NCBI RefSeq assembly: GCF_988243305.1
Contig: NZ_OZ547136.1
DNA: 64,000 bases
Direction: 5' to 3' (one strand)
Numbering within the stretch: position 1 is the stretch's first letter; every line of letters starts with the position of its first letter. The notes beneath the pieces were generated by a model that made no database searches, had not been told where the DNA came from, and was given only the letters and a program-made list of their open reading frames with translations. Shown one piece after another: positions 58,006 to 58,583 of the stretch. The translations under genes were made by a program, and so were the position numbers.

Positions 58006-58583
58006 TGGAGCACCTCAAAAACACCATCATACACTAAATCAGTAAGTTGGCAGCATCACCTGCAGTTTCTGCAGGTCAACGTCTGACCATCATTGTCATC
58101 ACTCTGGCCATTAGAGTAACCTTCTGCATTCATCCTTTTGTAAAAAGTTTATATCAGTATCAGCAATTAACCGGACCTGATACTGATATGAGTCTTACCG
58201 CATATACGGTTAATTTCAGCAATTAATTACATTATCCACGCCAAAGTATTTGTCATCACAATGATGGTACCTTCTTTCAGACACCATTTTTTCAACTCCG
58301 TTTTCCACGGACCGCACTCTTATGTCAAGAGTGCGGTCCGTGGATACAACCAGAGACCGACTGACACGAGTCAGAGGAAACGACGGATATGTTCAGTCGT
58401 AAAATATCTATCAAAAAACATGATTAAGGTCAAAAATGTTTGATATTTACAATTTATGAAGATGACAATAATTATAGACACATGAGAACATAAATGAAAA
58501 TAATTATCATTACAGCAATCTGAATCGCCACGGGTTTAACAGACACCTCAGAGTCATTTAAGATGGCTTAAAGAGAGGTGCCC

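Follow-up and report, generated by a model that had tools for sequence, protein, structure and literature searches.

Two palindromes in the yoeH spacer of Escherichia coli: a decaying stop-codon hairpin and a probable template-switching product within a fossil ISEc11-like element

How two long and perfect palindromes came to lie in the short spacer between an IS1 copy and an IS3-family element, and whether either of them has a function there, is the question raised by this locus of Escherichia coli. The window analysed, a single strand of 64,000 nucleotides from contig NZ_OZ547136.1 (RefSeq assembly GCF_988243305.1), had been described in an earlier note made from the letters alone, in which the two repeats were judged unlikely to arise by chance and were provisionally proposed to be operators, terminators or the ends of a small non-autonomous element. 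The explanation regarded here as probable is a different one: the spacer would be the tail of a fossil ISEc11-like element, from which the first palindrome (P1) was inherited, and the second (P2) would have been born in the dead gene and have acquired an effect on RNA ends.

Both palindromes are present in the sequence where they had been placed, although their geometry requires some correction. The 13-nt arms of P1 (58151-58163 and 58177-58189) are 100% complementary, as claimed, around a loop of 13 nt rather than 14 nt. P2 is longer than had been recognized: its arms (58304-58321 and 58327-58344) are 18 nt each, 100% complementary and separated by a 5-nt loop, the 15-bp repeat with a 9-nt loop first given being an inner-trimmed version of this structure. 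The folding energies that the note had called for place P2 at -37.4 kcal/mol on the minus strand and -36.5 kcal/mol on the plus strand (z = -8.8 and -9.4), with P1 at -17.0 and -20.3 kcal/mol, respectively (z = -5.1 and -6.9), and in neither case was any of 200 shuffles equally stable. Perfect inverted repeats of the hairpin type, with arms of at least 13 bp and a spacing of no more than 30 nt, number only five across the 64-kb window, P2 being the longest; by simple arithmetic of our own, ~0.03 repeats of 13 bp and ~3e-5 of 18 bp would be expected by chance. Shuffles, count and expectation thus agree that the repeats are unlikely by chance. P1 and P2 are real and non-random features of a known pseudogene region, and the description of the spacer as free of open reading frames is only loosely true, as mechanical ORFs of 33-60 aa and a transposase pseudogene fragment are found within it.

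The flanks are as the note described them, with IS1 on one side and the IS3-family element, from 58521 on, on the other (Table 1). IS1 is bordered by a 9-bp target duplication, TGCAGTTTC, at 57284-57292 and 58061-58069. In strains of group B2 and in O55:H7 strains, an intact 715-aa receptor gene (hma) begins 30 bp past the point at which the IS3-family element has inserted; no such intact gene is present in the window. The spacer itself (467 bases) is chromosomal; of 5426 complete E. coli genomes, 3558 contain it, with identities of 95-100%, and most of the records leave it unannotated. It is 98.9-100% identical to K-12 and other E. coli, and its K-12 counterpart (NC_000913.3 2068146-2068605, 98.9% identity) covers the minus-strand pseudogene yoeH (b4641), next to which lies yoeA, a fragment of a TonB-dependent receptor gene. 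Both palindromes occur at the K-12 locus, P1 with one mismatch there; in the window, unlike K-12, IS1 lies 9 bp past the point where the interval starts, and the yoeA side is replaced by an IS3-family element. The spacer is absent or truncated in ~60% of genomes, and IS3 has cut P2 in hundreds of them. Targeting of P2 by IS3 was considered for a copy at 58337/8 in LD39-1 and related strains, which proved to be accompanied by a deletion and not to be a simple insertion.

Table 1. Positions of the features discussed, numbered along the window.
Feature	Position	Strand	Basis
IS66-family tnpC/tnpB remnant	56588..57148	-	~71% identity; abuts fossil right end at 57141-57148
seekRNA homologue, remainder beyond IS1	57174..57292	-	alignment, covariance model
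Fossil guide-loop homologues	57276-57283 (T), 57250-57258 (B)	-	alignment to ISEc11
IS1 insertion	57293..58060	-	ML35 and cq9 without IS1, colinear across the site; insA/insB ORFs
seekRNA homologue, first ~33 nt (5' flank and 5' strand of first stem)	58070..58102	-	covariance model, alignment to ISEc11 long seekRNA
Conserved linker, stop-codon hairpin to seekRNA	58103..58150	-	70-78% identical to intact ISEc11-like elements
P1, fossil of the stop-codon hairpin in ISEc11-like elements	58151..58189	-	sequence, alignments, folding
TAA stop codon of transposase remnant	58169-58167	-	reading frame trace; same position in intact relatives
Transposase C-terminal remnant (yoeH), IS1111/IS110-family DEDD	58170..58348	-	tblastx to L004 transposase; K-12 annotation
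P2, transposase codons (..IHG..ALLT*ECGPW..)	58304..58344	-	sequence, codon alignment, folding
Non-IS sequence, hma/yoeA upstream regulatory region (TonB-dependent receptor)	58345..58520		comparison with other strains
IS3-family element, left end	58521..58832	+	homology to K-12 and other strains stops at 58521

Palindromic units of similar size define the ends of MITEs and the REP/BIME family of repeats, and the region is a graveyard of insertion sequences, both of which favour a small, repeated and non-autonomous element of this kind, with P1 and P2 as its ends or its units. The search for multiple copies that the earlier note had proposed points the other way. Per genome, the median number of places at which the spacer occurs is one and the maximum two, as it is for each palindrome taken separately, and no further copy of P1 or P2 with different flanks was seen in the 5426 genomes. 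Nor, when the sequence around each was inspected for the flanking direct repeats that the note had suggested looking for, were any found at either palindrome. As both are also internal in alignments with full-length IS elements, and lie within a single fossil, they are almost certainly not the ends of any smaller one.

The identity of that fossil follows from reading the spacer on the minus strand, where sequence comparison makes it the 3' third of a decayed insertion sequence of the ISEc11-like group (IS1111 family), the named relatives of which are ISEc11 and ISEc66. These elements encode a DEDD transposase followed on its 3' side by a seekRNA, or bridge RNA (Siddiquee et al. 2024, PMC11187229). 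What remains of the transposase gene is its last ~180 bp (~60 codons), interrupted by two in-frame stops and a ~10-nt deletion. The remnant is 42% identical to residues 285-337 of TnpEc11 (E 4e-10); only the extreme C-terminus survives, and the catalytic domain is absent from the window. In a full HMMER search of a 1.8-billion-protein library its best matches were fragments of ISEc11-like proteins at 51-53% identity, and neither this search nor a word-indexed protein search returned a closer intact relative. A full-length homologue is available in locus L004, where a 339-aa protein carries PF01548 and PF02371. The K-12 annotation of yoeH ends at the equivalent of window 58176, a few bases short of the true stop codon.

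On the non-coding side of the fossil, a stretch of ~250 nt that follows the stop codon can be aligned over its whole length to eight ISEc11-like elements; it retains 70-78% identity to their consensus, compared with ~50% for the coding remnant. A sensitive DNA search of the locus as it exists free of IS1 found resemblance to the 3' ends of IS110-family elements from 57145 through the spacer to ~58334. The elements matched in that search are themselves inserted in plasmid-borne copies of IS66. The fossil, too, adjoins an IS66-family element, as do its relatives in L004 and L009.

The general layout of live ISEc11-like elements, in which the transposase C-terminus is succeeded by a stop codon within a hairpin, a linker and a seekRNA region of two hairpins, is retained in the fossil, including the long non-coding region downstream of the transposase gene that typifies IS1111 elements. 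Unlike live elements, however, the fossil has lost its left end through truncation at ~58348, most of its gene, and the subterminal inverted repeat of its right end, in addition to having acquired the stops and a frameshift. At the right end the terminal ~16-20 bp are missing, the terminus (GGGATGCGTTCATATA in relatives) having been replaced by IS66 tnpB from 57141-57148. No subterminal inverted repeats were found at the fossil, which marks it as a truncated fossil and not as an intact member of the family. In the most plausible history, the element would have become fixed near cobU before E. coli diversified, truncated at ~58348 against the Fur-regulated upstream region of hma/yoeA, and the K-12 pseudogene yoeH would be the tail of its transposase gene. 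In published work yoeH is described as a "nonfunctional transposase" (PMC12363166); no assignment of it to the ISEc11/IS1111 group, and no mention of its fossil seekRNA, was found in the literature.

The guide RNA of the element has left a recognizable trace as well. For ISEc11, a long form of the seekRNA spanning 74-227 nt after the stop codon and a short form spanning 82-164 nt have been reported (10.1101/2024.04.26.591405). A covariance model built from 14 intact relatives, with the fossil left out, matched the uninterrupted locus at full length (L001 4888-5039, corresponding to window 58102..57174; 70.7 bits, E 7e-13). In the window, where IS1 splits the fossil seekRNA region of this strain, the same model matched two pieces with IS1 between them, at 57174-57318 (34.6 bits) and 58041-58102 (14.4 bits). 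The consensus fold derived from 16 relatives comprises two hairpins that contain internal loops, with compensatory changes in 14 of its 26 pairs, and the two-hairpin RNA expected of an IS1111 seekRNA is present at the fossil locus. In ISEc11, which was located in L009, the guides CAGTATTT and GTGAAAATA match the target GTGAAAATACTG; the fossil, in contrast, has lost both flanks and its target, so that no target match is possible for its guide loops. It also lacks the transposase, the protein to which the seekRNA of IS1111 elements binds and with which that RNA is needed for circles to form and for the element to transpose. One K-12 RNA 3' end, at 2068076 (PMC10687069 Suppl. Data 2-4), maps into the fossil seekRNA region at approximately window 57214.

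Against this background P1 can be placed with some precision. In the RNA sense its loop holds the TAA stop codon, its left arm consists of the last transposase codons and its right arm of the first non-coding bases. In ISEc11-like elements the stop lies within a loop because the last codons (..V-S-I/V-R..) pair with the sequence that immediately follows the stop, and the resulting hairpin was found at the same position and in the same register in all ISEc11-like elements examined. Its usual form there is a 7-bp core with 3-4 outer pairs and an interrupting A.C mismatch. A scan limited to one genome per species yielded 44 relatives with 39-88% protein identity, among which those of the Enterobacterales (Brenneria, Photorhabdus, Xenorhabdus, Citrobacter) keep the hairpin with right arms that differ (CACTGAC, TACTGAC, CGCTGAC). 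In ~9 Enterobacterales lineages the left arm was more complementary to the right flank than in dinucleotide shuffles (p 0.003-0.07), and in an ungapped alignment anchored on the stop codon 70.5% of cells were paired, as against 20-49% when the partners were slid. Compensatory changes from A-U to G-C and from U-A to C-G were observed, with double changes in only two pairs; 9 of 500 shuffles attained a covariation score as high. Relatives from the Burkholderiales are mixed, some having a hairpin that is longer, consists of three parts and carries the stop codon at its apex. RNAalifold, applied to a plain MAFFT alignment of the stop-codon region in which the right arms were misaligned between clades, returned no structure. 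Further complicating interpretation, the conservation of the left arm is partly due to protein coding and not to structure. Taken together, these comparisons give support for a hairpin of the P1 type in live relatives that is real but modest.

What such a hairpin might do in a live element is constrained by published transposition experiments. The hairpin lies ~60 nt upstream of the 5' end of the seekRNA, and a mini-IS reduced to 50-84 bp at the left end and 46-71 bp at the right transposes when Tnp and an 82-nt seekRNA are supplied in trans (10.1101/2024.04.26.591405). As the ends and the 82-nt RNA suffice, the stop-codon hairpin is not part of the recombination machinery. A DNA-level role, such as that of a site used in cis by the transposase or during replication of the circle, might nevertheless be entertained, given that the palindrome folds equally well on both strands and that IS1111 elements do use cis DNA sites (PMC11187229). 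The mini-IS shows, however, that an internal site at the stop codon is not required, and pairs of the G.U type are tolerated at column 5/39, as would suit pairing in RNA; action as DNA is thus quite improbable. The hairpin is better viewed as a putative feature of the RNA co-transcript of tnp and seekRNA, where it may serve as a boundary, a stability element or a processing element. No description of a stop-codon hairpin was found in the papers on IS110/IS1111 seekRNAs that were consulted.

In E. coli the situation is one of decay. Only 92 of 2840 genomes have a perfect P1, and its common alleles, C58155T (K-12, O55:H7) and A58153G (B2), are uncompensated; the perfect allele in the window appears to be the ancestral one. 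P1 is an inheritance from the live element that is without a role in E. coli. Whether the hairpins are maintained at homologous loci, a point on which the earlier note had rested its own refutation, receives opposite answers for the two palindromes: P1 is not maintained within E. coli and is kept in live relatives of the element, and P2 is maintained in E. coli and absent from those relatives.

P2 represents a quite different case, in that live ISEc11-like elements have no counterpart of it. It reads ..ATC CAC GG.. (I-H-G), then, across the ~10-nt deletion, GCA CTC TTG ACA TAA GAG TGC GGT CCG TGG, where the matching stretch of relatives encodes A-L-L-T-K-E-P-G-P-W, and both of its arms align to transposase codons. 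At the homologous site of 31 intact relatives that were scored there was no excess of folding, z ranging from -2.0 to +1.9 and centred near 0. Intact relatives have only the outer 7-8 bp of P2, represented in ISEc11 and L010 by the repeat ATCCACGG...CCGTGGAT, whose arms stand 36 nt apart; the fossil has gained the inner 11 pairs. Relative to the consensus, the right arm differs in a single cluster of 4 nt (GTGC for ACCT), and the asymmetry in length has been removed. Quasi-palindrome template switching, a process known in E. coli that creates RNA hairpins (PMC7202029, PMC8794818), would be expected to leave just such a combination of a substitution cluster and a lost length asymmetry. At the quasi-palindrome hotspots of E. 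coli a short inverted repeat likewise becomes a long perfect one through clustered substitutions and removal of asymmetric bases. By this route the ancestral repeat ATCCACGG...CCGTGGAT, which corresponds to the codons for I-H-G and G-P-W-I, would have been extended to the perfect 18 bp by clustered substitutions together with the ~10-nt deletion, and P2 probably arose in this way.

Two observations complicate such an account. P2 differs from well-documented quasi-palindrome mutations in that no close outgroup is at hand and both arms are similarly alike to the ancestor, each keeping ~60-78% identity to the consensus, which is not simply predicted by a single one-way templated event and counts against one. 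The distance of the closest relatives (best protein 51-53%) weighs likewise against a firm account of how P2 was built up. P2 is not the only pairing to have improved in the fossil, as P1 became better matched than its live counterparts and a long-range inverted repeat with 15 of 17 positions paired was gained between 58086-58102 and 58252-58268. These changes fit a mutational tendency; selection for double-stranded RNA is a possible alternative cause. The long-range repeat was also considered as a conserved processing duplex and set aside, with p 0.003 in the fossil and no significance in most intact relatives.

The subsequent history of P2 in E. coli is one of retention. It is present in all five haplotypes examined, the strains concerned being taken to represent different phylogroups, and matches at least 99% identical to it occur in 2314 of 2753 genomes. 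Its common variant, G58333A, changes C to U in the minus-strand RNA and so converts a C-G pair to U.G. This retention, the wobble produced by G58333A and the near-invariance of the adjacent 126 nt could mean selection instead of a purely mutational origin.

A transposase ancestry for both palindromes bears directly on the proposal that one or both are protein-binding operators, for example for hma/yoeA or for the neighbouring transposases. Perfect dyad symmetry near a regulated promoter region is what recommends that idea. The uninterrupted arms of 13 to 18 bp far exceed typical operator half-sites, though, and P1 and P2 lie ~300 bp and ~150 bp, respectively, from the hma promoter and its Fur cluster, with no gene for a DNA-binding protein associated with either. 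In addition, P1 is broken by uncompensated SNPs in ~97% of E. coli genomes, and in P2 both arms are transposase-derived codons. With nothing found in its favour beyond the symmetry and the setting, the operator interpretation that the earlier note had raised is very improbable.

The suggestion of terminators fared somewhat better, and for P2 only. In K-12, minus-strand RNA 3' termini have been mapped at 2068382/3 and 2068393, and the tables that list them show the P2 hairpin (-36.6 kcal/mol) alongside (PMC10687069 Suppl. Data 2/3). Taken from the positions in the published tables, and so for K-12 and not for the present strain, the ends at 2068382/3 fall 6-7 nt past the P2 stem. P2 thus resembles intrinsic terminators and 3' stabilizing hairpins in being GC-rich and very stable, with RNA 3' ends a few nucleotides downstream, and differs from intrinsic terminators in having no U-tract. 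None follows P1 or P2 on either strand, the tails being AAAACGGA on the sense strand and AUACAACC / ATACAACC on the other for P2, and AAACTTTTTAC and GAGTCTTACC for P1; a terminator scan of 58050-58600 on both strands returned no terminator-like sites. P1, AU-rich and with its 13-nt loop, is unlike intrinsic terminators in other respects as well, and no support for termination was found there. Neither palindrome is a canonical terminator, and the term applies only loosely.

A tail of 6-7 nt past a very stable stem is the typical remnant left by the stalling of a 3' exonuclease. As a promoter within the Fur-site cluster transcribes the minus strand, P2 would now form a hairpin of -37 kcal/mol in RNA, and this hairpin may set the K-12 3' ends 6-7 nt downstream of itself. 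With no U-tract present, P2 is most likely either a roadblock to 3' exonucleases or a non-canonical stop, of which the roadblock is favoured over true termination. Transcription of the locus is in any case documented. A sigma-70 promoter for yoeH, TTTTCA-18-TATAAT, was found by genomic SELEX together with an H-NS mark (Shimada 2014, PMC3946193), and the corresponding promoter-like site was recovered by a promoter scan in the window, on the minus strand from 58500 to 58471. Sense and antisense yoeH transcripts are both known from K-12, the antisense RNA being subject to degradation by RNase III and to Rho-dependent termination at an aptamer that binds RNA polymerase (iRAP) (PMC6847712).

These features also invite the view that the fossil has been taken over by its host. 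Under that alternative, selection has kept P2 as the hairpin at the 3' end of a small RNA of ~165 nt, probably controlled by Fur, that runs on the minus strand from ~58464 to 58298 and is divergent from hma/yoeA, such that the fossil is now part of a host RNA gene. The -35 of the promoter-like site, which scan and genomic SELEX both identify, lies inside a Fur box at 58495-58509 (14 of 15 positions matching) that belongs to the yoeA cluster, the strongest Fur-site cluster predicted in E. coli and one verified in gel shifts (PMC2189734); yoeA itself is repressed by Fur (PMC4676285). The K-12 RNA ends just past P2, the common variant that preserves pairing as a wobble in the sense RNA and the existence of sense and antisense transcripts are all in keeping with such an RNA, as is a report that a yoeH deletion strain shows altered tolerance to ofloxacin. 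The 126 nt from P2 to the promoter (58345-58470) are at least 99% identical in 2190 of 2195 E. coli records, whereas the neighbouring 58178-58303 is polymorphic (1261 records at or above 99% and 1580 at 95-99%), with the usual phylogroup SNPs in the transposase remnant. This invariance is only suggestive and leaves room for constraint on a host RNA that ends at P2.

The same data also argue for caution. Only a few E. coli haplotypes exist at the locus, so zero SNPs in 126-139 nt are only marginally unlikely by our own estimate (p ~0.04), and the case for selection on P2 itself comes from a single SNP. The frequent absence or truncation of the spacer and the interruption of P2 by IS3, noted above, also speak against a host RNA, and no mapped transcription start site was seen for it. 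It has no known partner or target and belongs to no Rfam family: a scan against Rfam gave only group II intron hits, in the neighbouring element, the spacer and both uninterrupted loci (L001 and L004) being without a match at E<=1. Selection of P2 as the end of a host RNA is accordingly considered rather unlikely. Two separate propositions, that an iron-responsive sRNA ending at P2 has emerged from the fossil and that the stop-codon hairpin of ISEc11-like elements is a regulatory or processing element, are likewise doubtful. The preferred explanation continues to be that of an inherited and decaying P1 and of a P2 that arose in a dead gene.

P1 and P2 are thus not operators, not ends of small elements and not a new regulatory system, and findings about the palindromes are for the most part ordinary and change no major picture. 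What is new is the assignment of yoeH to the ISEc11 group and the identification of the fossil seekRNA that goes with it, interrupted by IS1 in this strain, together with what comparison of related sequences indicates is a conserved stop-codon hairpin in live relatives. For annotation, an unannotated stretch that two thirds of E. coli genomes contain is explained as a fossil ISEc11-like element with a fossil guide RNA. For genome evolution, P2 offers a clean example of a long perfect palindrome in dead coding sequence that has gained an effect on RNA 3' ends; if the doubtful case for a host RNA were true, it would represent an unrecognized iron-responsive small RNA born from an IS fossil and a templated palindrome. 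For the biology of IS110/IS1111 elements, the stop-codon hairpin may matter for production of the guide RNA from the transposase transcript and, if its regulatory role were true, may couple translation of the transposase to the release or stability of the downstream seekRNA.

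Three gains of self-complementarity are seen in the decayed, minus-strand ISEc11-like element (the fossil) that fills much of the spacer between IS1 and the IS3-family element. Two are the perfect palindromes of 13 bp (P1, 58151-58189) and 18 bp (P2, 58304-58344), and the third is an inverted repeat matching at 15 of 17 positions, by which the 5' region of the seekRNA homologue (58086-58102) pairs with the transposase remnant (58252-58268). The predicted duplex of this repeat has an energy of -26 kcal/mol, compared with -13 for shuffled sequences, and no such repeat is seen in the majority of intact relatives. 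Substitutions relative to intact transposase genes account for both the ATG and the GGAG of a small predicted reading frame next to P2 (see the table, which also lists further hairpin-type repeats of the window).

Features of the window and of the comparison loci
Feature	Record	Coordinates	Strand	Remarks
Predicted 23-codon ORF (MVSERRYHHCDDKYFGVDNVINC)	window	58216-58287	minus	directly downstream of P2; GGAG ahead
Pseudogene debris	window	56101-56590		between cobU and IS66 remnant
Perfect inverted repeat, 15 bp	window	38995-39029		hairpin-type
Perfect inverted repeat, 14 bp	window	17515-17547		hairpin-type
Perfect inverted repeat, 13 bp	window	47918-47952		hairpin-type
ISEc11	L009	851-2293		inside tnpB, at target GTGAAAATACTG
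ISEc11-related copy	L004	about 3330-4825		different IS66 site, close to tnpB/tnpC junction
Group II intron	window	59231-61530		within IS3-family element right of spacer; RT ORF 59915-61438; Rfam match 61442-61528
IS3 copy joined to P2 right arm	L006	4276-5486		joined at window 58337/58338; downstream sequence lost
Fur-box match TGAAAATAATTATCA (14/15)	window	58495-58509 (also 58463-58477)		inside published yoeA Fur-site cluster

Like ISEc11 and its relative in the two comparison loci, the fossil adjoins IS66, here a remnant; unlike them, it lies at a different tnpB position again and lacks its right-end terminus. The ISEc11 target corresponds to the V-K-I-L codons of the IS66-family tnpB. At the place of the pseudogene debris beyond the IS66 remnant, the annotation of other strains shows a "cobalamin biosynthesis protein", labeled as partial, together with an IS4-family fragment, and K-12 carries IS5.

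P2 has itself been a site of rearrangement, as the IS3 copy joined to its right arm forms a junction within the palindrome; this join is present in LD39-1, O26:H11 and several hundred further genomes. The IS3-family element on the right of the spacer houses a group II intron encoding a 507-aa reverse transcriptase/maturase, and strain KTa008 carries the same intron. At 58521, this element separates the receptor gene hma/yoeA from its own Fur-box region, and the gene is absent from the window.

Between P2 and the promoter-like site of yoeH, the K-12 pseudogene corresponding to the transposase remnant, lie 126 nt (58345-58470) for which 2190 E. coli records out of 2195 reach an identity of at least 99%, in contrast to the neighboring 58178-58303, which show the usual phylogroup polymorphism. 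Such near-invariance may have arisen by chance, which is conceivable because haplotypes are few, or it may be a sign of constraint.
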